Below, piece after piece: positions 7,832 to 59,423 of a stretch of 64,000 nt of DNA (position 1 is the stretch's first letter; each line of letters opens with the position of its first letter). Source of the stretch: an uncultured Lentimicrobiaceae bacterium (lineage in GTDB: Bacteria; Bacteroidota; Bacteroidia; Bacteroidales; SKPS01); assembly GCA_964652685.1 (NCBI GenBank), contig CAZZBS010000001.1, positions 1,298-65,297 on the forward strand, read 5' to 3'. The notes under the pieces are model-generated. The model saw only the letters and a list, made by a program, of their open reading frames with translations, was not told the DNA's origin and searched no databases. A program made the translations under genes and the position numbers.

Positions 7832-7867
7832 AAGTTTTATATTTTGTAATGATTTCTTCGACGATGG

Positions 7868-37614: not shown

Positions 37615-39024
37615 TCATTTGCTTCTGATGTTTTTTTCAGACCCAAAAGAGGTAAACCTGAATCCGGACTGCCTCTTGAATGAAATCCCTGTGCATGCAA
37701 ATACCACCGGCAGGATCATGATCCACAACAAACGACTTTGGTAACGGGGATCTACTGTTGACAAAGAACTGCAAACAAATGCATTCACGATCAGAGTGCC
37801 TAAAACATAGATCCCAAACAACCGTGTTTTTAATGACATCTTCATAAAAGGCAATATCAAAAGAAAGCATAAAGCCGGGAAAAAAGCCAGCATCTGCAGC
37901 TTATTTTGCCATTTAACAATAGGATCCAGGTCTTTTTTGTTCTGAAGGGACGACCGGTATTGATTTTTATACACGGGATATAAAGAGGTGAACACAGAAT
38001 CGGGGAAAGGTATTTCTGCAATACAGGGGATGGTATCAACATTAAAGCTAAAAAACTGCTCAGCGGTACCCTCAAGCGATTTCATCACATATTCTGTGAG
38101 ATACTTTGGTGTAGTGAGAATATCAAGGTTGATGGCATTGTATTCCTTTCGGTTTGCATACCACCCGCCGGTTTTGTGCAGCGGGCTATACTTCTTCCAG
38201 ATAAAGTCAAGGTTTGATGGCAGGCTATCCTTGTAGCGACATAGTTTATAATCCTTTTCATGACAACAGTTGTCCAGGTATTTTTTAAGGATCCCTTCCT
38301 GATTCAGTTTTGCGATCAGAAATACATACCCACCCGGTCCGGTTGTAAAACTTCGTTTATAAACCCATTCTCCTGTCCGCGGAAACATATAATGAATCGA
38401 ACTGCTCAACAGGAATGCTACCAGAAAGGCAGCCCAGATGTGCATCAACCTGAAGGGGTAAACTTTCAACAGTGAACGGAACTTGTTAAATATCAGCAAA
38501 ACAGAAAAAACAACCAGTACAATTCCCATGATAACGAAATGGGAGTTGTGAACGGTCAGACCCAGCATAAAAACCATGGTGATGATCCCTGCATCCCATT
38601 TGTTCAGTCTATCTGTAAATATCAGGAGACCGAGGTTCAGGATGGTGAGTGAAATAAAGATATCCGGAAGGATCATGCTCACATAGACAGAAACATATGA
38701 AAAAAGGGCAATTAAAAAAATGGTGATCAGAAAGAATAAATAGATACGCTTTGTTTGGAATACATACCTGAAATAGAAGAAAATGGTAAGTGCGGTCAGA
38801 AAGCCCTGACACAAAATTGTGAGCCAAAGGGTATGATTAAGACTGCTAAGCCTTACGAACAGTCCATAAATTACCGGCCGGTCGACAGGGACATAATATT
38901 GAAAAGCAGGGTAAATATAAACGGCTGAATCCCAATGAAGGAGGGGGAACCTATTATACCATCCGAAAAAACACAGCAGGATGGATGCGATGATCAGCAC
39001 ACCAATAGTTTTCAGGTTCTTCAT
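37615..39024 (-). CDS. Polytopic integral membrane protein, possibly a GT-C-type glycosyltransferase
   Basis: 469 aa with many hydrophobic segments in the first 230 or so and last 100 or so residues, around a soluble loop. It sits at the edge of the glycan island. The GT-C call is a resemblance only. Confidence 0.6.
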   Translation of the reverse strand: MKNLKTIGVLIIASILLCFFGWYNRFPLLHWDSAVYIYPAFQYYVPVDRPVIYGLFVRLSSLNHTLWLTILCQGFLTALTIFFYFRYVFQTKRIYLFFLITIFLIALFSYVSVYVSMILPDIFISLTILNLGLLIFTDRLNKWDAGIITMVFMLGLTVHNSHFVIMGIVLVVFSVLLIFNKFRSLLKVYPFRLMHIWAAFLVAFLLSSSIHYMFPRTGEWVYKRSFTTGPGGYVFLIAKLNQEGILKKYLDNCCHEKDYKLCRYKDSLPSNLDFIWKKYSPLHKTGGWYANRKEYNAINLDILTTPKYLTEYVMKSLEGTAEQFFSFNVDTIPCIAEIPFPDSVFTSLYPVYKNQYRSSLQNKKDLDPIVKWQNKLQMLAFFPALCFLLILPFMKMSLKTRLFGIYVLGTLIVNAFVCSSLSTVDPRYQSRLLWIMILPVVFACTGISFKRQSGFRFTSFGSEKNIRSK

Positions 39025-40798: not shown

Positions 40799-41662
40799 TC
40801 ATCCTTTTTCGCACAGGAATATCTTTTCAAACGGATCAAATCCGAAGTATGCGATTTCTTCCGGGGTAAACGTGTTCACATAACCGATTTCCGAGACATG
40901 AAAACCTGCACCGGAAATTCTTTGCCCGTAATCCTGTCCGTATTTACGCACATGGTCTCTTTGCCCGAACAATTTTTCACGCTCCTCCGGTGTTGTGACA
41001 GCCGGATCTTCCAGGGTAGTTTCAAGGTTATAGAATACCGGTGACTGGAAGATACCCCATCCCCCTCTGGCCATCACCCTGTACATTTCTGCCATGGCCA
41101 TGTGATCATTCACCACATGCTCAAGCACATGACTGCATAAGATCACATCAAAGGAATCATCGTCAAAGGGAAGATTACAAAGGTCGGCTTTCAGGATTTT
41201 TCCCGGGTAACCCTGGTAATGGGATTGCTCCGGATTCAGATCACACGGATAATAAAGGATAAAGGGCAACCCGGAAAAGAAAGTAAAAAATGGCTTGATG
41301 GGCGCTATTTCGAGCAATTTCCAGTGGATCCCGTCGAAGAGCTTCGTATGGTCATGCAGGTAATGCCAAAGGAGCCTGTGCCTGGGTAGCGATCCGCAGT
41401 TGGGACATCTGCCCGTCGGAGATTCCACCTTGCATTCCAGTCCGGATGGGGATATGCCGTGGGATTCCAAAATCCATTTATACACCGGGGCAAATGAGGA
41501 AAATTCCTGGTTGCATACCGTACAGTTCACCCCTTTGCCCCGGTATTGCTGTAACTCCATGTCGCGGATGACATGTAGGATATGCTCCTGGTTCTTTTTA
41601 ACCAGTTGGAATGCTTTTCGCCGGACTTTCCCGTTTTCTCCCGATGTATCATTCATGATCAT
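40799..41662 (-). CDS. Class I SAM-dependent methyltransferase with N-terminal zinc-ribbon-like Cys pairs
   Basis: CTVCNQEF...CPNCGSLPRHR, then LLEIAPIKPF and DVILCSHVLEHVVNDHMAMAEMYRVMARGGWGIF (Methyltransf_11-like). Confidence 0.8.
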   Translation of the reverse strand: MIMNDTSGENGKVRRKAFQLVKKNQEHILHVIRDMELQQYRGKGVNCTVCNQEFSSFAPVYKWILESHGISPSGLECKVESPTGRCPNCGSLPRHRLLWHYLHDHTKLFDGIHWKLLEIAPIKPFFTFFSGLPFILYYPCDLNPEQSHYQGYPGKILKADLCNLPFDDDSFDVILCSHVLEHVVNDHMAMAEMYRVMARGGWGIFQSPVFYNLETTLEDPAVTTPEEREKLFGQRDHVRKYGQDYGQRISGAGFHVSEIGYVNTFTPEEIAYFGFDPFEKIFLCEKG

Positions 41663-42573
41663 ACGGTGTTTCGGGTCAAATACCGGTATTGTTTCCAGTA
41701 CTTTTTCAAGGGCATGAAAATGCTGACAAGCCAGATCTTCTTCCTCAACTTAAAGAAATTCAAAAGGATAAAGAGTTTGATTTCCGATTTTCGCAATTGC
41801 CAGACCCCAGCCCAATGGATCAGGAAAACCTCCCGCCATAGCCCATGATGGAAGATTTTCAAGCCCTTTTTCAGGTTTTTTCTTCCATTGCCCGCCCAGT
41901 ATTCCACATAGTTCTGCGGATAATATGCTGTATCGATCAGATTCCACAAACTCGAATGCCTCAATCCGGAGGTAACGATGAGATAATTCAACAGCGGCTG
42001 CTCCAGGCAATACAACTCCATATGTGGGGAGAGTGCCTGCGCTTCAACGGCCCTCTGCCAAAGGGTATCAGCAGAAATATTGTTTTTTGCTGATACAATG
42101 AATCCGGTATTTGCCGCATACCGGATCTGTTCCGGTGTCAGTTTTCCTGTATCATATATGGATGGTTTCCATACCCATTTTTCAGCTTCTGAAATGTTGG
42201 AAGTGGAGGTAATGAAATCAAAATGTTCAAGCAGTTCAAATGCGAATTCAATATTCTTAAGAACGATCATATCCACATCCATATACACAAATTCATCAAA
42301 AATACCCTGCCAACAGGCCAGTTTGCGGTAATGTCCGGTCACTTCGGCATGAAACAACAAACTGATACGGTCACACAAGGACAGCATGGTTGAATCCCGG
42401 TAAACTGAAAAATGGTATTCCTCCTGTAATGCCTCCAGTTTCTCCGCATCCTTCCTGAAAGGGATAAGGCACAAGGGCAGATCGGGATGATACACCCTGA
42501 AACTGTTCAGGAAGGCAACTGTCAGATCAAGGATCCTGTCGTTGGCAAGGAAATATACGCCTCGTGTTTTCAT
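41659..42573 (-). CDS. Putative nucleotide-sugar glycosyltransferase (GT8-like fold)
   Basis: MKTRGVYFLANDRILDLTVAFLNSF start and YMDVDMIVL (DxD). ATGA overlaps on both sides. Confidence 0.5.
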   Translation of the reverse strand: MKTRGVYFLANDRILDLTVAFLNSFRVYHPDLPLCLIPFRKDAEKLEALQEEYHFSVYRDSTMLSLCDRISLLFHAEVTGHYRKLACWQGIFDEFVYMDVDMIVLKNIEFAFELLEHFDFITSTSNISEAEKWVWKPSIYDTGKLTPEQIRYAANTGFIVSAKNNISADTLWQRAVEAQALSPHMELYCLEQPLLNYLIVTSGLRHSSLWNLIDTAYYPQNYVEYWAGNGRKNLKKGLKIFHHGLWREVFLIHWAGVWQLRKSEIKLFILLNFFKLRKKIWLVSIFMPLKKYWKQYRYLTRNTV

Positions 42574-43529
42574 GTGCCTGGCTTCCCGGTATTCTTAAAC
42601 TTACCTTCATTTTGTTTCGGTATCAGCTCCGTGAATCCATATGGGTCAATCCGCATGTCGTTACCGTAATGTTCCGGATTTATATGGACAACAGAGGACA
42701 TCCCATCCCAGAAAGCTTTCCGTCCATAGGCCGGGCTCATATACCTGGCGTGTTTGAAATTCATGAAATGGAGATAAAGAAACCTTTCATCCCCATCCCT
42801 ATCATTGGTAATATGCCCGTCTTTCCAGTACCATACCGTCGGATGCAATGGATTCCCATCTTTCCACCTGCCTGGTGTCAACGGGGTGGTGTGTTGTTCC
42901 ACAAAATAAACATTCTTTCTGTACCTGACGGATGAGGGGTGGCTCCAGTCATACATCCGGTGCAACCCTCGGGGAATTTTCGCAGGATATAGGAAAAGCG
43001 AAGAAAAATAATCCTCATCAAACCGCTGATTGTGTTGCTTTTCCAGAATTTCCTGCCAGTTACTGATCCTGTAGAACGCTTTTCTCAGCCATTCTTCATT
43101 TCTGATCAGCGCCAGATGTCCTGATATGCACCAGGTATGGGTACTGATGATATTGTAATGATTAAGAATGTCATCTGTATAAAAATCCCTGATGCGGCCA
43201 TAAATCACATCGATATCACCATATCCGAAGAAATCATAGTCCTTGATCTCTTCTTCATACAAAACACCATAGGCAGGACGCAGATCGCAGAGTTTATACG
43301 GATCGGCCGTATCAAAACGGACATTAAGCTTCTGGTTGACTGTCCGGATATAATCTTCCCTTGTACAAGGCTTGAACATGATATTACCGGCATCCAAACC
43401 TTCTACAGGGCAATCTGTATGGAACAGCCAGTTGATATCAGGATTCTTTCTGCAGCTTTCAAGGAATAGCGGGAACCATTCAGGCCAATGCTCTCCGAGG
43501 AAATCAATGATGATGATGATCGATTTCAT
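42570..43529 (-). CDS. Capsule-locus-type hypothetical protein (resembles DUF6625 family)
   Basis: SIIIIIDFLGEHWPEWFPLFLESCRKNPDINWLFHTD resembles the N-terminus of a family seen in EPS loci. The family name is from memory. Confidence 0.5.
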   Translation of the reverse strand: MKSIIIIIDFLGEHWPEWFPLFLESCRKNPDINWLFHTDCPVEGLDAGNIMFKPCTREDYIRTVNQKLNVRFDTADPYKLCDLRPAYGVLYEEEIKDYDFFGYGDIDVIYGRIRDFYTDDILNHYNIISTHTWCISGHLALIRNEEWLRKAFYRISNWQEILEKQHNQRFDEDYFSSLFLYPAKIPRGLHRMYDWSHPSSVRYRKNVYFVEQHTTPLTPGRWKDGNPLHPTVWYWKDGHITNDRDGDERFLYLHFMNFKHARYMSPAYGRKAFWDGMSSVVHINPEHYGNDMRIDPYGFTELIPKQNEGKFKNTGKPGT

Positions 43530-43538: not shown

Positions 43539-46040
43539 CTAATCACGACCTCCTCTTTCCCGATGCAGTTTTTCCCTGAGAACGGTTGTGAAATCCTTCA
43601 TGTGCTGCTTTTTCATGAGCCCCTGGTTTGCATCATGGATGCGTCTTTTATAGACCACCTTTTTGACTGACAGGATGGTCAGTCCTATGTGTTCAACCCT
43701 GGTAAACCAGTCAACAACTTCGGCAAGCTGCAGTTTCTCGTTCAGCGGGCCGACTTTATCAAGCAGTTCACGTTTTATGAGCAAACAACCCAGATGATAT
43801 CCCGGCATTGTTTTCAACTCCTCCCTCAGCAGGTGATGATGGGTAACTGCCAGTTCAGGGGAGACAAACTGTTCAATATCCCCCATGACCAGATCATATC
43901 CCGGGTTTTCCTCCAGGGCGTGCAGAAGTATTGAGGTATGCCCCGGCAACCAGATATCATCGGCATCAAGAAAGGCAATGTATCTGCCACACGACTCACC
44001 TATCCCTGTATTGCGGGCTGCGGCAGCACCCCTGTTTTCCTGCCTCACAATCCTTATCAGCGGCACAAAACGTTCGGCGATTTTTACTGTGTTGTCTGTC
44101 GATCCGTCATCAACGACCAATACCTCCGTATAGGCTGTATCCTGGCTTAATACGCTGTGGATTGCTTCGGCAATGTATTTTTCCCCGTTGTGCACCGGGA
44201 TGATGACGCTTACATCCACCCGTTCCTTTTTCTCCTGATAGGGATTTCGTATCCGGTCGAGTGACCTTTTGAACACTTTCAGCGCATTCAGTTCCACCAG
44301 CGTCTTTCCGCCGGTCATGTTGGCATTGTGCCTGCGGACATACAGGGTTACCTCCTCAAGCTTCTTCAGGTTGATATCCATTTCAGAAGCTCGTTTATAC
44401 CAGTCACTGTCCTCTCCGGTGTAAGCAAAAAGTGCATCAAACATGCCCACCACACTGAATGCCTCTTTCCGGTACAGTCCGGCGCCAAGGTATCCGGGAA
44501 AGGACTCCAACGGATTGCCGATATACTCATACAAACCTGTCTGAAGGTTCCGTTCCGTGTGTTGGGCATACCCCTGGACAACCAGGATGTCATCCTCTGC
44601 CAGAAGTTCATCCATCAGGTGGTTCAGGTTGTTTTCCGGCCACAGGTCGTCCACATCCAGCAAAGCGATAAAGTCACCCGTAGCTTCCATGATCCCCCGG
44701 TTCCTGGCAACCGCCGGGCCCTGGTTTTCCTGGAAGAAATACCTGTAATCAATTTTAAGCTCCTTGATTACTTCTTCGGAATTGTCGGTTGAACCATCGT
44801 TGACAAAGATGATCTCAAGGGAGGGATAATTCTGCGCTATAATGTTTTCTATGGCATCATGGATAAAATTAGCCCCGTTATATACGGGTACGATAACACT
44901 GATCAGCGGCCTGAATGATGATTTTTCCAGGTCCGGTTCCCTGGGGATGGGATGAATCCTACCGGCAAGGTACTCCTTCAGAAGGTGGGGCGCTGTATCG
45001 GTATCCTGCCCAAGCGTTAGCAAATAACATGGAAGTTCCCGGATGAGATCCGTGATGAAATTCTGTGTGTATTCACCTGCATAAGGAAGTTGTGACATGG
45101 TGGTGAATGAAAGGGCACCCAGGATCTTCCTGAAAGGTATTTCCGAAAGGATACTTATATCAGATGTGCCAATTTCAGGTTTTACGATAGCTTTTAAAGG
45201 CAATTCACCTATGATCCTGTTTTTTAATGCAGGATACAGAAAAAACAGCAGTTTTTCATACGACAGGTCCTCTTGTCTCTGTATATAGGGCGCAAATTCA
45301 GGGAAACGGTTCAGGTCATCAGGGAGGAGTTTGGCTGTGCAGTAAAGGCTTTGAACAACCGGTTCAGGCTTACGCCTGATGATCAGATAATCATCAGCAA
45401 GGTAATACAGTCCGTTTTTTAAACTTGAAAGAGCGGTGGTTGATTTGCCACTTCCCCCTTTTCCGGTGATAACAACAGCCCCGTCACTGGTGCCCACAGC
45501 AGCAGCATGCAGAAGCTGGCCGTTGTTTTTTTCCATCCACCAGTGGAACAGGGTGCGGAGGGGAGCTGCAAACACCCACATAGGAAGGTATTCCACGGTT
45601 TTCACCCAATAGAAGCCCGTGTTTGTTTCAAGGTCCATCAGGTTGAGTGAAAAATCGCTCCAGTGAAAGGCAGTCCTGATCCGTTTGCTGTTGAATCCCC
45701 AGAAATCACCCCTCTCGGTAAAATTGGCACGCTCACATGGTGGTGGCAACATCTCAACAGATGTACTCCTGCTATCCCAAATCAGGATCTCCAGATCGGC
45801 TGTCAATGGCTCTTCACTCTCCAGATGCATCAAAGCAGTCGTAAGATAAGGAACAAGTTCATCTCCTGCAAAGACAAGGCAAACAGAAGTATCCCCTATC
45901 CGGTAATAACGTTTTATCTCTCCGGTAACTGAAACAGCTTCCCTGAACCGGTCAACACTACGGTTGAAAAAATCGAGCTGTTCGGCTTCGCTCTTCTTGG
46001 GTGCATCGATACGGGGCTTATCTATTTGGGTGTTGTCCAT
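43539..46040 (-). CDS. Three-domain fusion: HPr-kinase-like P-loop domain + GT2 + GT2
   Basis: Residues about 180-225 read HAAAVGTSDGAVVITGKGGSGKSTTALSSLKNGLYYLADDYL (compare HprK ITGxSGxGKSxxAL...ADD). GT2a: ISVIVPVYNGANFI...IIFVNDGSTDNS...LLDVDDLW. GT2b: VSVIIPVHNGEKYI...VLVVDDGSTDNT...FLDADDIW. The ATG at 46040 lies one codon inside the listed TTG start. Confidence 0.85.
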   Translation of the reverse strand: MDNTQIDKPRIDAPKKSEAEQLDFFNRSVDRFREAVSVTGEIKRYYRIGDTSVCLVFAGDELVPYLTTALMHLESEEPLTADLEILIWDSRSTSVEMLPPPCERANFTERGDFWGFNSKRIRTAFHWSDFSLNLMDLETNTGFYWVKTVEYLPMWVFAAPLRTLFHWWMEKNNGQLLHAAAVGTSDGAVVITGKGGSGKSTTALSSLKNGLYYLADDYLIIRRKPEPVVQSLYCTAKLLPDDLNRFPEFAPYIQRQEDLSYEKLLFFLYPALKNRIIGELPLKAIVKPEIGTSDISILSEIPFRKILGALSFTTMSQLPYAGEYTQNFITDLIRELPCYLLTLGQDTDTAPHLLKEYLAGRIHPIPREPDLEKSSFRPLISVIVPVYNGANFIHDAIENIIAQNYPSLEIIFVNDGSTDNSEEVIKELKIDYRYFFQENQGPAVARNRGIMEATGDFIALLDVDDLWPENNLNHLMDELLAEDDILVVQGYAQHTERNLQTGLYEYIGNPLESFPGYLGAGLYRKEAFSVVGMFDALFAYTGEDSDWYKRASEMDINLKKLEEVTLYVRRHNANMTGGKTLVELNALKVFKRSLDRIRNPYQEKKERVDVSVIIPVHNGEKYIAEAIHSVLSQDTAYTEVLVVDDGSTDNTVKIAERFVPLIRIVRQENRGAAAARNTGIGESCGRYIAFLDADDIWLPGHTSILLHALEENPGYDLVMGDIEQFVSPELAVTHHHLLREELKTMPGYHLGCLLIKRELLDKVGPLNEKLQLAEVVDWFTRVEHIGLTILSVKKVVYKRRIHDANQGLMKKQHMKDFTTVLREKLHRERGGRD

Positions 46041-46069
46041 CAATCGGTTTTTTTCCTGGAGGTATGTTT

Positions 46070-47758
46070 CTATTCACAAGCCGTAAGAACACCATCATTC
46101 AGATGATAGATCTTTTCAGCAAAATTAATAACATTCCTTTCATGACTAATGATAAGGATAGCAGGTAACGGCTGGATTGAGCCCAGGTTGTCCATAATTT
46201 TACCGATGGCATTGCTGTCGAGGTGGTTGCCGGGTTCATCGAGGATTAGCAATTTAGGATTACGGTACAAAGCACGTGCGATGGCAATGCGTTGTCCCTC
46301 CCCGCCACTGAGCAAAACACCCTCATCCCCGATCGGTGTGTTATATCCTTCCGGAAGCTTCGCTACAAAGTCATCCGCCAGTGCGAGACTGGCAACATGC
46401 CTGAGTTGATCCATATCCACCTTTTCAGCACCATAAACAATGTTCTCAAGTATGCTGCCCGGAAAAAGGGGAGGGTGCTGGGCAACCACTCCAAGATGCT
46501 TACGGAACTCAACCATATCAAGCACCGGATAATGGCATCCTGACGCTTTTATTTCACCCCTCAGCGGCACCAGTAAACCACAGATCAGATTCAGGATAGT
46601 GGTTTTACCCGAGCCGTTGGCTCCGACGATGGCGACCCTCTCCCCCGGCCTGATCTGAAATTCCATACCCTTCAACACAAGGTTGTCGTCATAGGCAAAT
46701 GAAATCCCTTTCATTGTGATCTCACCGTCGAAATCGATTGTCTTCGCTCCTGTGTACAGGCTTCCCTTATGAATGGAGAAAAGTTCAAACAAAGTGTTCA
46801 GTGATACGTTCCCGGCAATGATGTCCGGAATGGAGGTCGTGATCATGTTCACATATTTATTCAGGTACATAGCAGCCAGGTAAAACGACAGGAAATCTCC
46901 AAGTGTCATGGATTTCACAGCTACAGAAATCCCACCGATAATGATGATGACAATAGCGGTCAGCCCGGTCAGGATCTCCTGCAACTGCAGGTTGACAGCA
47001 AAAATATCAGCCATGCGGCTGGTCTTTTGCTGCAGATCGACAAGGACACCCTTCTGATGGGCCATCTCCTCTTTCTGGGCCGACTGTATGGTGGTAAGGG
47101 GCATATACCTGAGGACAAAATAAATCCCTTTACTGAATTCCTCAAAAGCGCGTTGAAAAACAAAGACCCGTCGTTTGATCTTTTCCCCCATGAAACGGTT
47201 GGCAAAGATCAGTATGGGAAAAAGAGAAACAATGATAAGCAACAGATACCAGTTCAGGATAAAACAGGCAATCAAGAGCCCAAGACCGATAATGACCGAT
47301 GGTAACAACCTGGAAATAAGGGCCGTGCTCATGTTGCACAACCTCTCAGTGTCCTGTACAATGCGGGTGTGTAAAATCCTCAAATCTGATTTCGCATAAA
47401 AGAGATAAGAAAATCCATAGAGTTTCTTCAGAAGGCTTTCACGAAGGTCAAAAACAGCCTGGTTGATGATCCGTATATGGTATTTCCTTAATATTACCGA
47501 TAACACTGAATTCATCAGTCGCAGAAGAAAAATGGCAATGCCGATCCATATCAGCAGGGAAATATCATGATCAGGGATCACGACATCAAAGGCATGTTTG
47601 ACAAGCAGAAGAGACGGGATGATGATCAGGGTTTGCCCGACTGACGCAAAGGTTGTCCAGAAAATCTTGCCATATTGTCCAGAAAAGAAACCTGCATAAT
47701 ACCTCCAGGCCTTTTTTGAGAACTTTGGAAAAGAATTGACCCTGTTGTTTTGAGACAT
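46070..47758 (-). CDS. ABC exporter, fused permease + ATPase half-transporter (MsbA/McjD-like), no C39 peptidase domain
   Basis: 562 aa with six N-terminal TM segments. Walker A GANGSGKTT, signature LSGGEGQR, Walker B LLILDEP. Confidence 0.9.
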   Translation of the reverse strand: MSQNNRVNSFPKFSKKAWRYYAGFFSGQYGKIFWTTFASVGQTLIIIPSLLLVKHAFDVVIPDHDISLLIWIGIAIFLLRLMNSVLSVILRKYHIRIINQAVFDLRESLLKKLYGFSYLFYAKSDLRILHTRIVQDTERLCNMSTALISRLLPSVIIGLGLLIACFILNWYLLLIIVSLFPILIFANRFMGEKIKRRVFVFQRAFEEFSKGIYFVLRYMPLTTIQSAQKEEMAHQKGVLVDLQQKTSRMADIFAVNLQLQEILTGLTAIVIIIIGGISVAVKSMTLGDFLSFYLAAMYLNKYVNMITTSIPDIIAGNVSLNTLFELFSIHKGSLYTGAKTIDFDGEITMKGISFAYDDNLVLKGMEFQIRPGERVAIVGANGSGKTTILNLICGLLVPLRGEIKASGCHYPVLDMVEFRKHLGVVAQHPPLFPGSILENIVYGAEKVDMDQLRHVASLALADDFVAKLPEGYNTPIGDEGVLLSGGEGQRIAIARALYRNPKLLILDEPGNHLDSNAIGKIMDNLGSIQPLPAILIISHERNVINFAEKIYHLNDGVLTACE

Positions 47759-47790
47759 AATGGCTTTACCTGTTTGAGGCCTACCCCCTG

Positions 47791-48255
47791 CTATTTTATT
47801 TTTGGCTCAGGCCATCCTTTTTCGTCAACGTCATGGATCGGGTCCAGCAGCAGAACATCACGCATATCGGCGTACCGGCGAAACAATGGTTTTTTGACTA
47901 AAATTTCCGAATAAACTTTTTCTGCCTTCAGTCCCTCGGGGGTTAGTGCCGGTCTATCCTGCCCGGTGGGATCTTTTTCGAGAATGATCTCATTGGCTCT
48001 GAGTTCATCGATGAATTCAATGATATACTTTTCCATATTCTGTGCGGCATCACCAAAGATCTCTTGTAGCAGGTGAATGATCTGTAAAGAATGGGCACCC
48101 TTCACGATCAGGTCCCAGATAACCGGTCCGATGCCGTCAAAGCTGTAATAGAAACCGTTTTTAAGGTTCATGATAATGGTTTCCCCCTCAATGGTTTCAT
48201 GAATCACATAGGGAGCATTTAGCTCATATAGTTTGTTTTGAAGCGAGGTGTCCAT
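47791..48255 (-). CDS. PqqD-family protein (RiPP-recognition-element-like)
   Basis: 154 aa. VIHETIEGETIIMNLKNGFYYSFDGIGPVIWDLIVKGAHSLQIIHLLQEIFGDAAQNMEKYIIEFIDELRANEIILE follows the PqqD beta-strands plus helical-bundle pattern. Confidence 0.75.
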   Translation of the reverse strand: MDTSLQNKLYELNAPYVIHETIEGETIIMNLKNGFYYSFDGIGPVIWDLIVKGAHSLQIIHLLQEIFGDAAQNMEKYIIEFIDELRANEIILEKDPTGQDRPALTPEGLKAEKVYSEILVKKPLFRRYADMRDVLLLDPIHDVDEKGWPEPKIK

Positions 48256-48306: not shown

Positions 48307-49284
48307 TCATTCACACGCGATAAGCATTCTTACATGATTCATTTCCAGGTGTGAGAACTTCTTTTCCTTCAGCGCAGAGATCAGATTCAGAAGACCGGTT
48401 TCCAGTGCGGTTTCATGTCGCCATCCAAGGATCCTCTCAGCGCGTTCGGGAGAGCCATAGAAACGACCGACATCATATTGCCGGGGGTTGGCCATCACGA
48501 TATCTGAATGGCTGCTGGTCAGGTCAAGGATCATGTGTGCCAGTTCCAACAGGGTTGTCGGCCGACCGGTGACGAAATGAACCGGTTCCAGGCTTATTTC
48601 CTGATGCCACAGGAATTTCATCGTCATAAGAATACCTCTCAGCACCTCATTCAGGTAAGTAAAATCAAATGTGTTTTCACCACCATCCACTCTGAGGGGG
48701 CTCCCTGCAAGGGCTGCAAGAATAAACGCGGGTACCACCCGGTCATGGTAATCATTGGTCCCGCCGAATACATTGGAAAAGCGGAGAATGGCTGCTTGCA
48801 AGCCTTCTGATCTTACAGCTTCAGTGACCGCTACCTCACTTTGGGCTTTGGTTTCACCGTACAGATTGATGGGAGCCAGGGGTTGTGTTTCCGAAACCGG
48901 CAGCACCGGAACATTACCATATACTTCACGGCTGCTGGAGAATATAAGCCATGGCCTCTCCTTTTGCCGGAGAATAGCATGGATGACATTGTGAATGCCT
49001 TTCAGGTTAACATCCTGACATAGTTCCGGATTCATCTCGCCATAGATTACCCTGGAGATTGCTGCCAGGTGGACCACCCCGGAGCAACCCCTGACAGCCT
49101 GTTCAACGGCGTCGGCATCCCGGATGTCTCCAAAGGCCGGTCCTGTTTCCAGGATATCAAATCCTTTTACAGAAATACCCTGCTTCTGAAGCATGTCCAG
49201 CAACGCCACGCCGATAAGGCCACAGGAACCGGTAACCAAGACCGGCTTCCCATTATTTCCCCGGTAATTGTGAGTATAGGTCAT
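48307..49284 (-). CDS. NAD-dependent sugar epimerase/dehydratase (extended SDR)
   Basis: VLVTGSCGLIGVAL (GxxGxxG) and catalytic YGETK. Confidence 0.85.
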   Translation of the reverse strand: MTYTHNYRGNNGKPVLVTGSCGLIGVALLDMLQKQGISVKGFDILETGPAFGDIRDADAVEQAVRGCSGVVHLAAISRVIYGEMNPELCQDVNLKGIHNVIHAILRQKERPWLIFSSSREVYGNVPVLPVSETQPLAPINLYGETKAQSEVAVTEAVRSEGLQAAILRFSNVFGGTNDYHDRVVPAFILAALAGSPLRVDGGENTFDFTYLNEVLRGILMTMKFLWHQEISLEPVHFVTGRPTTLLELAHMILDLTSSHSDIVMANPRQYDVGRFYGSPERAERILGWRHETALETGLLNLISALKEKKFSHLEMNHVRMLIACE

Positions 49285-49393
49285 TGAATGGTTGTTAATG
49301 CTGATTACGGCTTTTTCTCCGAGATGACATTCAACCGTATGATTCTAATAGTGGATTTCCTGTTGAACTGCCAACCGGCCGGATCTCGTTTTG

Positions 49394-49401
49394 CAAATGT
49401 A
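49394..49401 (-). promoter_or_regulatory. Candidate -7 box (TACATTTG on minus strand)
   Basis: Plus strand reads caaatgta. It lies in the only large (161 bp) gap of the minus-strand operon, about 110 nt upstream of the epimerase start. Confidence 0.25.
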
Positions 49402-49445
49402 TCATTTTATTCGGGATTCTTCCATGACCCACCGCGAATTTTCCT

Positions 49446-51446
49446 CTATTCCTGGCTTTCAGGAGGATAAAGCTTCAGCGCAACCGCCTGGATCAAAGTA
49501 TCAATTTCCGGATTTGGCTGGTCAGTTAAACAGCGGTAATAACAATTGACAGCCTCTTCATATTCACCCATGGCATAATAGGTCATCCCAAGTATCTTTA
49601 ACGAACTTCTGAACAAGGGGTAAATCCTGAGCGCCTCCTGGAAAAGCTTCACAGCTCCGGGGTAATCCTCCTGCATATAATGTACGGTTGCCAGGTCATG
49701 CAACACCGGAACCGACCAGGGATTCTGTTCTAAAGCATGTTCGAGATCCCTTCTGGCCTCTCCGAATATTACCTGGCGCATACTGCTGTCAACCTGAGAA
49801 GTGCCAGTCTGCATCAGACTGTCTATCCTTTCCATACCCAACCGCATGTTGGCATTTCCCCTGAACCATAAAAGGGGCTTATTGGTTTGGTCAAGCGGGG
49901 CCCATTGGCTGTAACCAAGGTCAATGGCAAGTATGACGGTGCGCCACTGACCGGACATCTGCGCCGCATAAGCATAATTTGTATAGGTCTCTGCTTTGAT
50001 CATTTTCCGGGCTGTATGGAGCCCAAACACCAGGAATATGGCGGCAACCAGCAGAAACCACTTCCCGGTGGTTCTTAACGGCTTAATCTCCCTGCCGGAT
50101 ACTGTCAGCTGTATCCATAGAATTACAGAAACAAAGAACATCATAAACATCTGAATATCTACCCGCTCATACGGAAACGAAAAGGAGGCATCCACACAGT
50201 ACCCGGCCAGACCGGCCATCATCATGATAACCAGTATCTTTTGCCCAGGCTGTATGGATTTCCGCAAGACACCAAGAGAGGTTATTAGTACGGTGATAAA
50301 AAATCCAAGATAGAGCAGTAGCCCCGGAACGCCCTTTTCCACCAAAACCCAGATATAATCATTATGCGGCCGACGCCAGTTGTGATAATAACTCTCATCC
50401 GGATTGGGCTGATAGTAATCAGGCACACAGATCTTCCAGTTGCCGGCCCCGACCCCCAGTACCGGGTGTTCTGCAACCATGTTCAGGGTTTGCTCCCAAA
50501 TGTCCAACCTCTTGATCCTGGTTGGGGAGGAGGTGCTAAAAATCGAAGCAGCCCGCTTACCCAGGTTATCTGTTTTTTCCAAGGTCCTTGGAGGCGCTGT
50601 CCTTAAAGGATTCCTGGTGGAAAAACTGCTGACGAGAAATGCGAAAATGAACGCCGCCAATAGTATGCCCACCCCCAGAAACAGGCTCCGTCTTAATTCC
50701 AGGTTATGCTTCAGTTTGATATCCTGACGAAAAATAAAACCCAAAACAGCACTTATCAGCATAAAAACAAATAATGCAAGCCAGATCGACCTTGTCTGTA
50801 TGATCATTAAAAGAGAGATACTGAGGAACATTGCCATGCCGGTAATGATCCGAAGGCCTTTGACAGAAGTCAGCAATGCATAACCCAGGATCGGTATGAC
50901 CAGGTAGAGAATCCCGGAAAATACATTTTTATGGGACATGAGGCCGTTTACCTTGTACATCATACTGAAATCTGTCTGACGGAAGGCATGGGTGAAGTAC
51001 TGGTAATACCCGATGGTTGCAAAAGCAAGGGTCAACAGGATGGCCGATATGATGAAGGGCCGGATATTGTTTGTCCTGAAGAGGATGGCAGCCGTTATGA
51101 CAAGATAAAGCAATGACAGGGTAAGCCGCAGAATATCGAACCAGCCTTCAAGCGGATTGATGGCCGCAAACAAGGAGATGACCGATAGAATGATGAAGCC
51201 GGTCCAGAACCACACTGGCCACGACCTGAACAAGACGCCGACCTGCATCTGCAACTTCCTGAAAACAAGAAAGACCAGGACATAAAACAGCATCAAAATG
51301 GCCAGCGCCATGAATTTTGGCACCAGGGTGGGATCTACCACCGGTTTATAATAAAAAAAAGGGATAAACAAAAAGGAGGACAATGCATATAACCAGGTCA
51401 GCCATGCCGGAAATTTTACCTCCTGACTTTTCTTTTGTTTTGCCAT
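49446..51446 (-). CDS. O-antigen ligase/polymerase-like (Wzy_C) membrane protein fused to C-terminal TPR repeats
   Basis: At least 10 TM segments. IIQTRSIWLALFVFMLI is Wzy_C-like. The C-terminal 170 or so residues have TPR signatures (YPGAVKLFQEALRIYP, MGEYEEAVNCYYRCL). Confidence 0.8.
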   Translation of the reverse strand: MAKQKKSQEVKFPAWLTWLYALSSFLFIPFFYYKPVVDPTLVPKFMALAILMLFYVLVFLVFRKLQMQVGVLFRSWPVWFWTGFIILSVISLFAAINPLEGWFDILRLTLSLLYLVITAAILFRTNNIRPFIISAILLTLAFATIGYYQYFTHAFRQTDFSMMYKVNGLMSHKNVFSGILYLVIPILGYALLTSVKGLRIITGMAMFLSISLLMIIQTRSIWLALFVFMLISAVLGFIFRQDIKLKHNLELRRSLFLGVGILLAAFIFAFLVSSFSTRNPLRTAPPRTLEKTDNLGKRAASIFSTSSPTRIKRLDIWEQTLNMVAEHPVLGVGAGNWKICVPDYYQPNPDESYYHNWRRPHNDYIWVLVEKGVPGLLLYLGFFITVLITSLGVLRKSIQPGQKILVIMMMAGLAGYCVDASFSFPYERVDIQMFMMFFVSVILWIQLTVSGREIKPLRTTGKWFLLVAAIFLVFGLHTARKMIKAETYTNYAYAAQMSGQWRTVILAIDLGYSQWAPLDQTNKPLLWFRGNANMRLGMERIDSLMQTGTSQVDSSMRQVIFGEARRDLEHALEQNPWSVPVLHDLATVHYMQEDYPGAVKLFQEALRIYPLFRSSLKILGMTYYAMGEYEEAVNCYYRCLTDQPNPEIDTLIQAVALKLYPPESQE

Positions 51447-51491
51447 TGTAAATCAATGTAAATGAAGGATATATGTACTTTAATGGTTGAA

Positions 51492-52484
51492 CTACCGTAC
51501 AGATTGTTTTGTCAAAAAAAGAATGGTTTTGAGCCGGAAACAGAAACCGGTCAAAAACAGGGCAGCCATGAGAAGAAACAGATTCCCCCTTGCTTTATAC
51601 ACCACTTTCATCCAGCGGTTAAGCAACACAGAAAACAAAGCCCATCTGTCAAACAACGGATTTCCTGCTGTGGCTGATGCAATACGTAACAACCAGGAGC
51701 GGTATTGCTTGATCTCTGAAAAGGAGGTTACCCTGTCCGCCCCTTTTAATGCAAGATGGATGGCAAGGTCTTCCGTCGAAGGTTCAATACCAATATCATT
51801 CAGGATAATTTGAAATACCCTCAGGTTGATCCTGTTAATGACTTCCGCATTCCGGATTATAATACTGCCTGTGTGTCTCCTGTACAAGGTAAGGTATTCC
51901 TGCATAATGCAGCCGGCACCGCTGTTGAGCATTTTCCACCACAACACATAGTCCTCCACCATGTCCAATCCCTCGGGAAACCTGAAGCCGTGTAATTTTT
52001 CCTGACGGAATACCACAGAGGAATTCACAAAACAATTATGGAAAATCATACGGGGCAACAACCTCTTCCTCCCGAAATGCATGGGCCATTTTCCGATTTC
52101 CCGATCCTTTTCATCGATTAATATCACAGAGGTGCCTGCAAATCCAAGCACAGGGTTTTTCCTGAGGAAATCAATCTGTTTCTGATATTTGGCGGGATGG
52201 GCAAGGTCATCCGAATCGAAAAATGAAATGAATTCTCCCTGTGCCATATCCAGGCCTGCATTCCTGCAATACACAATACCCCTGTTCCTTTCATTGTACC
52301 GGCAACAGATCCGTGGATCAAGAAAATCTTTCATGAGCTGAGGTGTCTGATCGGTGGAACCATCATCGATGATGATCAGCTCAAATTGCCTGAATGTCTG
52401 ATTCAACAAGGAATCAACAGCGGCCTGGATAAAATCCTGCACATTGTAAGCCAGCATAATAATACTCAAATCCACCCTGTTCAT
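51492..52484 (-). CDS. GT2 glycosyltransferase with C-terminal hydrophobic tail
   Basis: LSIIMLAYNVQDFIQAAVDSLLNQTFRQFELIIIDDGSTDQT and FFDSDDLAH. ATG at 52484. Confidence 0.85.
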   Translation of the reverse strand: MNRVDLSIIMLAYNVQDFIQAAVDSLLNQTFRQFELIIIDDGSTDQTPQLMKDFLDPRICCRYNERNRGIVYCRNAGLDMAQGEFISFFDSDDLAHPAKYQKQIDFLRKNPVLGFAGTSVILIDEKDREIGKWPMHFGRKRLLPRMIFHNCFVNSSVVFRQEKLHGFRFPEGLDMVEDYVLWWKMLNSGAGCIMQEYLTLYRRHTGSIIIRNAEVINRINLRVFQIILNDIGIEPSTEDLAIHLALKGADRVTSFSEIKQYRSWLLRIASATAGNPLFDRWALFSVLLNRWMKVVYKARGNLFLLMAALFLTGFCFRLKTILFLTKQSVR

Positions 52485-52635
52485 ACCGCGTTTCAACCAC
52501 AATGAATACCTGGGCTAAAGTACAACTTCTTGTCACATCCTGCCGGGTAGATCATATAATTGTCATACCTGTCCTGTGAGAACAACATTATTTGTAATTT
52601 AACACCCCCTTAAATAAAAAGCTACCAGGAAGCTT

Positions 52636-55935: not shown

Positions 55936-56007
55936 AAACCAGATCTTTATTGCCTGCACGGATTGGAGATGGAATGCAAATCATCAGCTCCTGCAGGATC
56001 AGGTGCA

Positions 56008-57239: not shown

Positions 57240-57263
57240 GTTAAAACATCATGCAATGGGTGT

Positions 57264-57271
57264 CAAAATTA
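57264..57271 (-). promoter_or_regulatory. Candidate -7 box (TAATTTTG on minus strand)
   Basis: Plus strand reads caaaatta. 25 nt upstream of the ATG at 57239. Confidence 0.3.
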
Positions 57272-59249: not shown

Positions 59250-59264
59250 CGCACTTATTTTACA

Positions 59265-59414: not shown

Positions 59415-59423
59415 AAAGCCATC

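Follow-up and report, generated by a model that had tools for sequence, protein, structure and literature searches.

Why should genes of the kind used to decorate lasso peptides lie among genes for sugar-adding enzymes, with no lasso cyclase, leader protease or precursor beside them? The question is raised by a locus within a 64,000-nucleotide stretch of DNA (here, the window) from an uncultured Lentimicrobiaceae bacterium (GCA_964652685.1, contig CAZZBS010000001.1). A preliminary description made from the sequence alone reported a PqqD-like protein, a half ABC exporter without a C39 peptidase domain, an HprK-like domain fused to two GT2 domains and a nearby NTP_transf_5 gene, and noted the absence of lasso core genes. 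We find that this observation holds, and that these genes are one copy of an uncharacterised cassette found in bacteria of more than ten phyla. The interpretation then offered is only partly supported, as set out below.

Gene content of the locus

All four genes lie where they were first placed. The identity of the PqqD protein is secure at the Pfam level (36.8 bits against a gathering score of 23.4), although its best NCBIfam hit, lasso_PqqD_Bac at 42 bits, falls below that model's cut-off of 80. The exporter has ABC_membrane at residues 35-300 and ABC_tran at 362-509, with no peptidase C39 hit. Its earlier label of 'McjD-like' is not specifically supported, since its best solved relatives are P-glycoprotein halves, BmrA, TM288 and MsbA, and McjD is not among the top 60.

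The GT2 region of the 834-aa protein is clear (domains at about residues 376-600 and 605-833; 234.9 bits), whereas the N-terminal 370 residues give only weak HprK matches: Hpr_kinase_C at 21.3 bits (cut-off 33.3), TIGR04355 at 27.6 bits and TIGR04352 at 23.3 bits (cut-offs 200). The kinase assignment is nevertheless sound on two grounds. First, residues H178, G193, G196, G198, K199, S200, D216 and D217 are invariant in the family. Second, the AlphaFold model (pLDDT 87) matches ATP-PEP carboxykinases (E 8e-10), which share a SCOP fold class with HprK.

A Pfam sweep of the window ORFs of at least 150 aa, which left out 34334-34816 and 63329-63988, found no Asn_synthase, Transglut_core3 or radical SAM protein. 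The intergenic gaps in the operon run from -4 to 161 bp and hold no credible small ORF.

Table. Features of the cassette copy and its surroundings (window coordinates)
Coordinates	Strand	Feature	Supporting observations
47791..48255	-	Lasso-B1-type RRE (PqqD) protein, 154 aa: RRE domain, variable linker, conserved C-terminal tail	AlphaFold pLDDT 82.6; best PDB match TbiB1 with leader peptide, TM 0.83
47974..48231	-	RRE (winged-helix PqqD) domain, residues about 9-94	Pfam match over residues 25-91; predicted strands 9-40 and helices 43-87
47809..47898	-	Conserved C-terminal tail, residues 120-149: VKKPLFRRYADMRDVLLLDPIHDVDEKGWP	Most conserved part of the family
46070..47758	-	ABCB-type (type IV) half exporter, TMD-NBD, no C39 domain, 562 aa	Cassette orthologues score 400-605 bits against it, versus about 175 bits for MsbA or BmrA
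43539..46043	-	Kinase-GT2-GT2 protein, 834 aa	
44931..46007	-	HprK/lasso-kinase-like P-loop kinase domain (residues about 12-370)	Invariant motif; predicted PEPCK-like fold
44241..44915	-	First GT2 domain, fused to the kinase domain	Pfam Glycos_transf_2 and Glyco_tranf_2_2 from residue 381
43542..44228	-	Second GT2 domain; in most relatives a separate downstream gene	Pfam Glycos_transf_2 at 612-763
54790..55959	-	NTP_transf_5 nucleotidyltransferase, displaced here by 6.5 kb	Pfam PF14907, 143 bits; clusters with the cassette nucleotidyltransferases of 57 of 58 loci; conserved LLKG...RPMAD137-I-D139VL...EFDLHW signature
48307..54678	.	Lineage-specific insertion between the nucleotidyltransferase and PqqD: NAD epimerase/dehydratase (48307-49284 -), Wzy_C+TPR membrane protein (49446-51446 -), GT2 (51492-52502 -), GT2-Wzy_C fusion (52636-54678 +)	Pfam; Wzy_C-TPR in 4 related loci, epimerase in 6
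40799..43529	-	Downstream operon genes: DUF6625 (42570-43529), 304-aa protein with weak GT-A-like matches (41659-42573), SAM methyltransferase (40799-41662)	Pfam; gaps or overlaps of 9, -4 and -4 bp indicate translational coupling to the kinase-GT2 gene; 304-aa protein and methyltransferase recur after the kinase-GT2 gene in one related locus (L036)
37615..39024	-	469-aa polytopic membrane protein, recurrent accessory gene of the cassette	No Pfam or PDB match; homologues follow the GT2 genes in 11 loci from Smithella, Syntrophaceae, Nitrospiraceae, Lentisphaeria and Alphaproteobacteria
56061..61289	.	Probable glycan-decorating enzymes: two SGNH/GDSL-like proteins (56061-57239 -, 57307-58869 +), NodU/CmcH-type carbamoyltransferase (59424-61289 +)	Pfam and NCBIfam; same trio next to the cassette in a Bacteroidetes MAG (L045)

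A conserved cassette in about a dozen phyla

The preliminary description placed these genes inside a glycan operon. Comparison with related loci shows instead that they are not lasso leftovers in such an operon but the window's copy of an autonomous cassette with the order PqqD > NTP_transf_5 > (ABC) > kinase-GT2 > 1-6 small GT2s. Of 58 loci with at least 5 kb upstream, 58 have PqqD, 57 the nucleotidyltransferase and 38 the exporter, all on the same strand in a fixed order, and these loci come from about a dozen phyla. The association is far beyond chance, recurring in 58 of 58 related loci. The nucleotidyltransferase normally lies directly after PqqD, and the exporter, where present, is always between the nucleotidyltransferase and the kinase gene. 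The cassette is found even as a six-to-seven-gene island between transposases (locus L084), and the same set occurs with a stand-alone kinase (locus L086). Cassette-bearing genomes include Rhodohalobacter sp. 614A, Polymorphobacter NZ_CP180346.1 and Crocinitomicaceae OZ260085.1. The window's Wzy_C, epimerase, methyltransferase, carbamoyltransferase and SGNH genes are lineage-specific additions.

Kinase and glycosyltransferase are physically coupled, with a kinase-GT2 fusion in 71 of 72 complete family members in the loci and the kinase plus two GT2 architecture in 14 of 72. GT2-kinase and epimerase-kinase fusions and one ABC-kinase fusion protein (P0355) also exist. A profile of the kinase domain hits 6364 50%-identity clusters, 2001 of them at E<=1e-30.

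The RRE protein is closest to lasso B1 proteins both by fold and by profile, with all 38 homologues scanned hitting lasso_PqqD_Bac. None of the 38 gave a listed match to any PqqD model other than the lasso, ScmD, WgkC, GeoRSP and PQQ types. The preliminary description was right that an RRE of this type, an HprK-like domain and an NTP_transf_5 gene belong together, and that cyclase, protease and precursor are absent; our literature searches, in line with its statement, yielded no characterised example. Its appeal to the TIGRFAM HprK-related kinase A/B families is not supported, as these match only far below their cut-offs.

The preliminary description also missed an unexpected feature, which is the best candidate for the missing peptide. 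Every PqqD protein carries on a variable linker a nearly invariant C-terminal tail (DMxDLLLLDPIHDVDExGWP), in which D, LLL, DPIH, V, D and GWP are at or above 90% in 175 unique homologues. A lasso-leader-like [FY]xxPx[LVIMF] motif precedes it at fixed distance in 121 of 175 (69%), although the window copy has V at the aromatic position. AlphaFold predicts a confident strand at 124-128 and a helix at 131-135, while 136-154 has low confidence.

A possible peptide-guided phospho-glycosylation pathway

What the analysis establishes is that a lasso-B1-type RRE protein, a PF14907 nucleotidyltransferase, an HprK/lasso-type kinase domain fused to GT2, further small soluble GT2s and, in two thirds of loci, a dedicated ABCB-type exporter are inherited together across about a dozen phyla without a lasso cyclase, leader protease or separately encoded precursor; the function of the cassette, and each step of the pathway that follows, we infer from sequence and by analogy. 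We tentatively read the cassette as a peptide-guided phospho-glycosylation machine built from lasso-peptide tailoring parts. In this view the RRE protein would present a peptide segment and the kinase domain would phosphorylate a hydroxyl on it, as the RRE-accelerated kinases BsfK and PadeK do on lasso precursors. The nucleotidyltransferase would convert the phosphate into a phosphodiester-linked sugar, as PsmN does on pseudomycoidin, and the fused and neighboring GT2s would extend this into a defined oligosaccharide, decorated by lineage-specific enzymes (methyl, carbamoyl and acyl groups in the window, sulfate elsewhere) and moved out by the ABC exporter. This is close to the first of two options in the preliminary description, that the RRE presents a peptide or protein to a kinase/glycosyltransferase enzyme for export.

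Several lines of evidence favor a peptide substrate. The kinase motif H-x14-G-x2-G-x-G-K-S-x15-D-D is invariant and identical in spacing to that shown by mutagenesis to be needed in BsfK, whose activity the RRE BsfB1 accelerates (PMC10368454). PsmK and PsmN give a phosphate and then 1-2 hexoses on a peptide serine, with PsmN D134/D136 essential (PMC6993621), and the window enzyme has D137-x-D139 in a conserved motif. This link with PsmN rests on Pfam family naming, the catalytic motif and general background rather than on direct sequence comparison. True lasso clusters of Butyrivibrio carry nucleotidyltransferase, HPr kinase and GT2 together (PMC7533575).

Within this reading the most likely peptide is the RRE protein's own tail, the only peptide-like element conserved in every locus, with an unlinked peptide or protein as second option. 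The tail begins with the leader-like segment, which the model suggests packs against the RRE domain, a cis-docking inferred from secondary structure and pLDDT only, and ends in its nearly invariant portion, taken to be exposed and flexible. Searches within +/-10 kb in 80 loci revealed no conserved small ORF and no enrichment of YxxPxL ORFs on the operon strand (0.70% against 0.65%). The minimal loci have no initiating phosphoglycosyl transferase, Wzx or Wzy, so the kinase/nucleotidyltransferase pair is the obvious primer. Other observations count against this reading. The tail has no invariant Ser or Thr: Tyr at -10 is 93% and Ser/Thr at -9 is 83%, the window copy has Tyr-Ala, and 5 of 175 tails have no hydroxyl at either position, whereas known lasso kinases target Ser. 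A nearly invariant 'core' is unlike normal RiPP cores and fits a docking motif equally well, and the window's tail lacks the aromatic residue of the leader-like motif. In addition, 20 of 58 loci have no exporter, and export of a 150-aa glycoprotein by an MsbA-like half transporter would be unusual.

The main alternative, in our view somewhat less likely, is a non-peptide glycan or glycolipid pathway. Here the kinase and nucleotidyltransferase would make or activate an unusual sugar phosphate or prime a lipid carrier, the GT2s would build a lipid-linked or free oligosaccharide flipped or exported by the MsbA/PglK-like ABC protein, and the PqqD protein would be a scaffold holding the enzymes together through its tail. 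Everything else in the cassette is carbohydrate chemistry, with 2-7 GT2 domains, Stf0-like sulfotransferases and GT1-like, rhamnosyltransferase-like and PMT_2-like proteins in relatives, the epimerase-kinase fusion, and the additional glycan genes of the window. The exporter's nearest solved half-transporters include the lipid flippase MsbA, and NCBIfam lists PglK and HepA among its hits. The tail has no invariant hydroxyl residue and looks like a docking motif. A kinase followed by a nucleotidyltransferase is the classical route to an NDP-sugar. Against this reading, all characterised PqqD/RRE domains bind peptides, and the present one is closest to lasso B1 and found in every locus. The kinase motif is that of protein/peptide Ser kinases (HprK, BsfK) and not of sugar kinases, PF14907 has the polymerase-beta-like nucleotidyltransferase signature (G[GS]...DxD) rather than the GT-A-like fold of sugar-1-phosphate nucleotidylyltransferases, and minimal loci lack a priming phosphoglycosyl transferase.

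The second option of the preliminary description, that the RRE/HprK module was co-opted to control polysaccharide assembly, appears doubtful. In this model the PqqD protein and kinase domain would sense or transmit a signal and switch the attached glycosyltransferases on or off by phosphorylation without taking part in the chemistry. HprK itself is a regulatory kinase, the domain is fused to the enzyme it could regulate, and the tail could be a regulated docking or phospho-acceptor site. However, the nucleotidyltransferase is as universal as the kinase and has no role in the model, the kinase domain is also fused to the ABC exporter or occurs alone, the nearest functional relatives are tailoring enzymes and not regulators (PMC10368454, PMC6993621), and a regulator would not be expected to travel with its own GT2s as a minimal mobile island.

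Least likely is an orphan tailoring and export module for a true lasso peptide whose precursor, B2 protease and cyclase lie elsewhere in the genome. The RRE, kinase, nucleotidyltransferase, GT2 and ABC exporter are all gene types found in phosphorylated or glycosylated lasso clusters (PMC6993621, PMC7533575, PMC8498205). Yet neither the Pfam-annotated loci nor the ORFs scanned in the window contain Asn_synthase or Transglut_core3, the small-ORF searches above were negative, and the RRE carries its own leader-like segment. Consistent separation from the core genes across a dozen phyla would be unprecedented for lasso clusters.

Comparison with known systems

The closest known systems are the pseudomycoidin (psm) and paeninodin (pade) lasso clusters, with the HprK-like kinase PsmK/PadeK, the nucleotidyltransferase PsmN, a B1 RRE and a D exporter (PMC6993621, PMC9266682, PMC8498205). 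The same four accessory gene types occur together, the kinase has the H/K/D/D catalytic residues, the nucleotidyltransferase has an essential D-x-D near residue 135, and hexoses on a peptide-borne phosphate would give GT2s something to extend. The present cassette differs in having no precursor gene, B2 protease or cyclase, in the fusion of the kinase to GT2 followed by up to six more GT2s, in the invariant tail of the RRE protein, in the absence of any conserved C-terminal Ser, and in its distribution in Gram-negative and environmental phyla rather than Firmicutes.

In the Bradymonas bsf lasso cluster (PMC10368454) the kinase motif H148-G163-G166-G168-K169-S170-D186-D187 has exactly the spacing of the window enzyme, the leader motif YxxPxL resembles the [FY]xxPxL segment at the start of the tail, and N and D genes are also present. 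BsfK, however, acts on Ser3 of a free precursor that is then cleaved and cyclised, whereas here the leader-like motif is part of the RRE protein and no cleavage or cyclisation enzymes exist.

The uncharacterised HprK-related kinase A/B cassette (TIGR04352, TIGR04355) and the SynChlorMet cassette (ScmC HprK-like, ScmD PqqD-like) both pair an HprK-like P-loop protein with a PqqD-like protein. All 15 kinase domains tested hit HprK_rel_B, HprK_rel_A (TIGR04355 and TIGR04352) and hpr-ser weakly, and 15 of 38 PqqD proteins hit ScmD weakly, but scores of 17-28 bits against cut-offs of 125-200 indicate different families, and the GT2 fusion, NTP_transf_5 and tail that define the present cassette are not part of those models.

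The mycofactocin pathway (MftB RRE, MftC radical SAM/SPASM, MftF GT2) likewise combines an RRE with a GT2 that glycosylates a peptide-derived product, some relatives of the present cassette have radical SAM/SPASM genes, and the peptide end is invariant as in cofactor-type RiPPs. There is no MftA, MftC, MftD or MftE in the window, the GT2 similarity to MftF is generic (125.8 bits against a cut-off of 280), and the kinase and nucleotidyltransferase have no counterpart in mycofactocin synthesis. In ABC-transporter-dependent glycan pathways (MsbA, PglK), finally, a TMD-NBD half transporter of the same superfamily sits next to glycosyltransferases, but the cassette exporter forms its own orthologous group, is absent from a third of loci, and is not accompanied by a priming transferase in minimal loci.

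Gene content of the locus and its surroundings

The genes of the set lie on the minus strand as the preliminary description had them, and its observation of lasso-type accessory genes without a cyclase, leader protease or precursor holds. The PqqD protein matches the Pfam PqqD family above its gathering score (36.8 against 23.4 bits), and the exporter is a TMD-NBD half ABC transporter without a C39 domain. In the 834-aa protein two GT2 domains follow an N-terminal region of about 370 residues that gives only weak HprK-type matches (Hpr_kinase_C 21.3 bits, TIGR04355 27.6 bits, TIGR04352 23.3 bits and ScmC 16.9 bits), all far below their cut-offs. The nucleotidyltransferase is a clear member of NTP_transf_5 (PF14907, 143 bits). 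A Pfam sweep of the window ORFs of at least 150 aa, leaving out those at 34334-34816 and 63329-63988, found no Asn_synthase (cyclase), Transglut_core3 (B2 leader peptidase) or radical SAM protein. Likewise, Asn_synthase was not hit in five Pfam-annotated related loci (L001, L002, L084, L085 and L086), nor Transglut_core3 in the same searches of the window and of L001, L002, L084 and L085. The operon is tightly packed, with gaps from -4 to 161 bp, and has no credible small ORF.

One label of the preliminary description fails, in that the exporter is not specifically McjD-like. McjD is not among its 60 best solved relatives, the top hits being P-glycoprotein (ABCB1) halves, BmrA, TM288 and MsbA.

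Coordinates of the genes and features discussed, in the window and in related loci
Sequence	Position	Strand	Feature
Window	47791-48255	-	PqqD protein, 154 aa
Window	46070-47758	-	Half ABC exporter, 562 aa
Window	43539-46043	-	HprK-like kinase domain plus two GT2 domains, 834 aa
Window	54790-55959	-	NTP_transf_5 nucleotidyltransferase
Window	52502 down to 40799		Operon
Window	37615-39024		469-aa membrane protein
Window	52636-54678	+	680-aa protein, GT2 domain (residues 9-138) fused to a Wzy_C (O-antigen ligase/polymerase-like) membrane domain (residues 471-618)
Window	2972-5626	+	WbaP-like Bac_transf priming transferase (4223-5626) and GT4/DUF1972 glycosyltransferase
Window	5663-7870 and 31093-33363	- and -	Aldehyde:ferredoxin oxidoreductase and membrane H+-pyrophosphatase
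Window	8027-13591	+	Bacterial alpha-2-macroglobulin, 1854 aa
Window	13665-16081		Two ORFs without clear domains
Window	16142-18292		T9SS-sorted C1 peptidase with a lectin domain
Window	19134-21560	+	PBP1c-type penicillin-binding protein (Transgly, Transpeptidase, BiPBP_C)
Window	30597-30670		tRNA
Window	36113-37387	-	Por_Secre_tail match (residues 83-150) upstream of Fib_succ_major (residues 240-423)
L084	3885-15076		Minimal cassette and its mobile-element flanks
L085	15754-21830		Continuation of the cassette with radical SAM/SPASM genes
L001	7980-8243		tRNA gene and Bacteroidales-type small SRP RNA

The wider window contains a number of further features. The alpha-2-macroglobulin and the PBP1c-type protein lie 5.5 kb apart and are separated by the two ORFs without clear domains, the C1 peptidase and an M48 peptidase; the macroglobulin/Pbp1C pairing is known, but the inserted proteases are not typical. 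The position of the Por_Secre_tail (T9SS C-terminal sorting) match ahead of the Fib_succ_major domain is odd for a C-terminal signal, and the ORF call may have merged two genes. The aldehyde:ferredoxin oxidoreductase and the H+-pyrophosphatase, together with three T9SS sorting domains, point to an anaerobic Bacteroidota host. An Rfam search found no riboswitch or other RNA in the window cluster, and only the tRNA elsewhere in the window.

A conserved cassette across phyla

We find that the set is a conserved cassette and not an accident of the one glycan operon in which the preliminary description placed it. The N-terminal kinase domain alone has more than 600 detectable homologues and, of the best 120, 116 are proteins of 550-650 aa, that is, this domain plus one GT2; they come from Planctomycetota, Syntrophales, Nitrospirota, Balneolaceae, Dadabacteria and others. 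A profile of the domain hits 6364 clusters at 50% identity, 2001 of them at E<=1e-30, many of which are stand-alone proteins of about 350 aa. A genome scan with the full kinase-domain alignment, which relied on the generic P-loop pattern GKGG[VIS]GKST, returned 600 pattern matches and no relatives, but a sub-alignment lacking the P-loop gave 80 loci, nearly all from metagenome-assembled genomes. These represent Balneolota and Bacteroidota, Desulfobacterota (Smithella, Syntrophaceae, Desulfobacterales), Nitrospirota and Thermodesulfovibrionia, Gemmatimonadota, Lentisphaerae, Spirochaetia, Acidobacteriota, Candidatus Dadabacteria, Candidatus Eisenbacteria, and Alpha-, Beta- and Gammaproteobacteria.

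ORFs were called in all loci and searched with the window's proteins. Among the 58 loci with at least 5 kb upstream of the kinase gene, 58 have the PqqD gene, 57 the NTP_transf_5 gene and 38 the exporter, all on the same strand and nearly always in the order PqqD > NTP_transf_5 > (ABC) > kinase-GT2 > GT2 genes. Of 49 loci with flank on both sides, 45 have one to six further small GT2 genes. We considered a chance association or an annotation artefact, and rejected it on the 58 of 58 co-occurrence; anti-phage defence was also considered, but nothing pointed that way.

The cassette can stand alone. In L084 it comprises PqqD, nucleotidyltransferase, ABC, kinase-GT2, two GT2s and a short-chain dehydrogenase, with an IS91-type transposase and a phage-type integrase upstream, and a mutator-type transposase and a ParE/Phd toxin-antitoxin pair downstream, which suggests that the cassette moves as an island. 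In L001 (Rhodohalobacter sp. 614A) and L002 (a Deltaproteobacteria MAG) it is flanked by unrelated housekeeping genes; the L001 tRNA and SRP RNA, found by Rfam, lie directly upstream of the PqqD gene. In L086, where the kinase is a separate 351-aa protein, the neighbors are the same. Two loci, L015 and L040, carry a second, partial copy of cassette genes (an extra PqqD and a kinase fragment) a few kb from the complete one.

The window differs from this norm in three ways. A second GT2 is fused to the kinase protein, as in 14 of 72 complete members. The nucleotidyltransferase is separated from PqqD by 6.5 kb of inserted glycan genes, namely an epimerase, a Wzy_C-TPR protein, a GT2 and the GT2-Wzy_C fusion, the last transcribed divergently from the cassette operon. 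Finally, the window has its own decorating enzymes: DUF6625, a weak GT-A-like protein, a methyltransferase, two SGNH proteins and a carbamoyltransferase. L045, a Bacteroidetes MAG locus, shares the SGNH, carbamoyltransferase and Wzy_C-TPR neighbors.

Other accessory genes recur in relatives: Stf0-like sulfotransferases in 14 loci, often in tandem; radical SAM/SPASM proteins in 10 loci; the 469-aa membrane protein in 11 loci; and GT1-like, rhamnosyltransferase-like and PMT_2-like proteins. PDB sequence searches gave nothing for the 469-aa membrane protein or for the nucleotidyltransferase. In L085 the cassette continues with two radical SAM/SPASM genes and a GlcNAc 2-epimerase-like gene, and ends next to a PEP mutase. 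The only paper found to mention PF14907 notes it next to PEP mutase in a phosphonate gene family (PMC8942020), and a link to phosphonate-decorated glycans is possible.

The proteins and the chaperone tail

The PqqD protein is of the lasso B1 type. All 38 homologues scanned hit the NCBIfam model for lasso-peptide PqqD chaperones of the Bacillus type (lasso_PqqD_Bac), though below its curated cut-off, whilst 26 also hit the Streptomyces type, 15 hit ScmD weakly and only 2 hit true PqqD. The AlphaFold model (pLDDT 82.6) best matches the lasso B1 protein TbiB1 in complex with its leader (TM 0.83 on the target), followed by another B1-leader complex.

In an alignment of 15 members of the kinase family, H178, G193, G196, G198, K199, S200, D216 and D217 are invariant. 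The motif H148-G163-G166-G168-K169-S170-D186-D187 has been reported for the lasso kinase BsfK and its characterized relatives, with mutagenesis showing that most of these residues matter (PMC10368454), and the spacing here is identical (H+15, +18, +20, +21, +22, +38, +39). The same His-Lys-Asp-Asp set is summarized for PadeK and ThcoK (PMC9266682). The predicted model of the domain (pLDDT 87) matches ATP-dependent PEP carboxykinases (E 8e-10, TM about 0.55), which in the SCOP classification belong to the fold class that also holds the HprK catalytic domain.

The nucleotidyltransferase family keeps LLKG, RPMAD137-I-D139-VL and EFDLHW, the G[GS]...DxD signature of polymerase-beta-like nucleotidyltransferases; PsmN, with D134/D136, is described only as an 'uncharacterized nucleotidyltransferase' (PMC6993621). 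Cassette orthologues of the exporter score 400-605 bits against the window protein, versus about 175 bits for MsbA or BmrA, so it is a dedicated lineage. One database protein (P0355) fuses this type of exporter to the kinase domain, and others fuse GT2 or an epimerase in front of it, but among core genes within the 80 loci there is no fusion beyond kinase-GT2, the long 'ABC' ORFs of high-GC loci being probably start-codon artefacts.

An unexpected feature is that the PqqD proteins are about 150 aa, not about 90; the RRE domain is followed by a linker that varies in length and sequence and then by the most conserved part of the whole protein. Numbering from the Asp of DPIH as 0, in 175 of 181 unique homologues this tail reads P(-15) x [LFV](-13) N K Y(-10) [ST](-9) D(-8) M x D L L L L(-1) D P I H D V D(6) E x G W P, with D(-8), L(-3 to -1), D0, P1, I2, H3 and V5 at 98-100%. 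In 121 of 175 the segment starts with [FY]xxPx[LVIMF] at a fixed position, -18 to -13, which is the YxxPxL motif that lasso leaders use at -17 to -12 (PMC10368454). The window's copy is VKKPLFRRYADMRDVLLLDPIHDVDEKGWP (residues 120-149), which has the Pro and the hydrophobic residue but Val instead of the aromatic, and Ala at -9. AlphaFold gives the linker, the strand 124-128 and the helix 131-135 high confidence (block means 79-91), and the invariant DPIHDVDExGWP end low confidence (60, 51, 49). We infer, from these confidence values rather than from coordinates, that the leader-like segment packs on the RRE domain while the invariant end stays free.

No separately encoded peptide takes the place of a precursor. 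Clustering of small ORFs (12-100 aa, operon strand, +/-9 kb) found only groups limited to closely related Smithella loci, whose variable stops argue for conserved non-coding DNA. Six of these loci (L009, L012, L015, L021, L022 and L051) share a conserved stretch just upstream of PqqD, about 1.85 kb upstream of the kinase gene, that reads as a pseudo-ORF MTYKRNFPIFP and is probably a promoter or 5' leader rather than a peptide; Rfam, run on the related L002 but on none of these Smithella loci, matched nothing there. Likewise, a regular-expression search showed no enrichment of YxxPxL-containing small ORFs, which make up 0.70% on the operon strand and 0.65% on the opposite strand.

Interpretation and comparison with known systems

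In the nearest characterized systems, HprK-like kinases phosphorylate a Ser of lasso precursors, and the RRE BsfB1 greatly accelerates BsfK (PMC10368454, PMC9266682). In the pseudomycoidin cluster PsmN then adds one or two hexoses to that phosphate, with D134/D136 essential (PMC6993621). Butyrivibrio lasso clusters carry nucleotidyltransferase, HPr kinase and GT2 genes together (PMC7533575), and some Firmicutes clusters add a sulfotransferase (PMC8498205). The cassette is that tailoring and export set without the lasso core, permanently coupled to GT2s. We therefore propose, by analogy, that the RRE presents a peptide, the kinase domain phosphorylates it, the nucleotidyltransferase creates the first phosphate-linked sugar, the GT2s extend it, lineage-specific enzymes decorate it, and the exporter, where present, moves it out. 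The conserved gene set and the lack of lasso core genes in the contexts searched come directly from the sequence comparisons, but this pathway is a proposal, and every activity in it from phosphorylation onward is inferred. It would also explain why minimal cassettes need no polyprenyl-phosphate priming transferase. The interpretation in the preliminary description is supported in part.

In this view the peptide is either the chaperone's own tail or something encoded elsewhere. The tail is the only universally conserved candidate, it has the leader-like start, and 170 of 175 tails have Tyr and/or Ser/Thr at -10/-9. However, the proposal remains tentative, since the tail has no invariant Ser or Thr, the window itself has Tyr-Ala, and lasso kinases are Ser kinases. 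The near-invariance of the tail across phyla is the opposite of what RiPP cores show, and suits a docking motif. The relationship of the kinase and nucleotidyltransferase to PadeK, BsfK and PsmN does not rest on direct sequence comparison, and a third of loci lack the exporter.

The main alternative is a purely carbohydrate pathway in which the PqqD protein is only a scaffold. This is favored by the overwhelmingly glycan-type gene content and by the MsbA/PglK-like exporter, but is disfavored by the peptide-kinase motif, the B1-type RRE present in every locus and the non-sugar-nucleotidylyltransferase fold of PF14907. The window cluster has two Wzy_C proteins and an ABC exporter but no Bac_transf or WecA-type primer, and minimal cassettes (L001, L002, L084) have no initiating phosphoglycosyl transferase, flippase or polymerase. 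The nearest Bac_transf, 38 kb from the cassette, belongs with the GT4/DUF1972 glycosyltransferase to a second glycan-locus fragment, which could supply a lipid-linked primer if this alternative is right. Regulatory co-option, also raised in the preliminary description, leaves the universal nucleotidyltransferase unexplained. A remote lasso cluster is made unlikely by 58 loci, five Pfam-annotated contexts and a 64-kb window without any core gene.

If the tail's [FY]xxPxL is put in register with the lasso leader motif, a lasso 'core' would begin at L(-1), as L1-D2-P3-I4-H5-D6-V7-D8-E9-x-G11-W12-P13 plus 8-20 variable residues. The total length would be typical for lasso peptides, acidic residues would sit at 8/9, where lasso rings close, a bulky Trp would follow at 12, and a hydrophobic residue would sit at leader position -2, where Ile/Val variants are known (PMC10368454). 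With no cyclase in any of the contexts searched this cannot be a lasso peptide today, but it does suggest that the tail began as a precursor fused to its B1 protein. A more far-reaching possibility, which we consider unlikely but which is not excluded, is that the RRE protein is its own precursor, with a lasso-type B1 domain fused to a leader-like strand and an invariant core in lasso register, on which the kinase and nucleotidyltransferase would prime a phosphate-linked sugar and the GT2s build a decorated oligosaccharide. That would be a protein- or peptide-primed glycan made without a polyprenyl carrier, and a new RiPP-like class present in more than ten phyla.

If the favored reading is right, bacteria from at least a dozen phyla, most of them uncultured anaerobes and soil or sediment lineages, share a hitherto unnoticed way of making a glycoconjugate, in which a peptide chaperone would guide a kinase and a nucleotidyltransferase to lay down a phosphate-linked first sugar that soluble GT2s then extend. 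That would link RiPP biosynthesis and glycan assembly, two fields that rarely meet, would give a function to PF14907 and to a kinase-domain family of several thousand sequence clusters, and would explain what the kinase, nucleotidyltransferase and GT2 genes of many lasso clusters are derived from, or have given rise to. If the non-peptide reading is right, the cassette would still be the first case of an RRE domain serving a carbohydrate pathway.

The cassette is real and widespread, and its parts are of known kinds, but the arrangement (the tail, the kinase-GT2 fusion and the lack of a class-defining RiPP enzyme) and the product are new. Literature searches on PF14907, HprK-related kinases, SynChlorMet, and RRE-Finder with HPr kinase found no paper on it, and public names for its proteins are 'glycosyltransferase', 'PqqD family peptide modification chaperone' or 'hypothetical protein'. 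The cassette would work like, and is probably derived from or ancestral to, the kinase/nucleotidyltransferase tailoring branch of lasso clusters, yet it lacks the features that define a lasso cluster, having no cyclase, no B2 and no free precursor in the contexts searched. It is not a member of the curated HprK-related kinase A/B families (TIGR04352/TIGR04355, cut-offs of 200 bits), to which all 15 family members tested give only weak hits. Nor does it belong to the SynChlorMet cassette (ScmC cut-off 125 bits), whose ScmE/F radical SAM partners have no counterpart among the window ORFs scanned. Its scores are a tenth of these cut-offs, although it shares with these families the unexplained pairing of an HprK-like protein with a PqqD-like protein. 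It resembles mycofactocin synthesis only in combining an RRE with a GT2.
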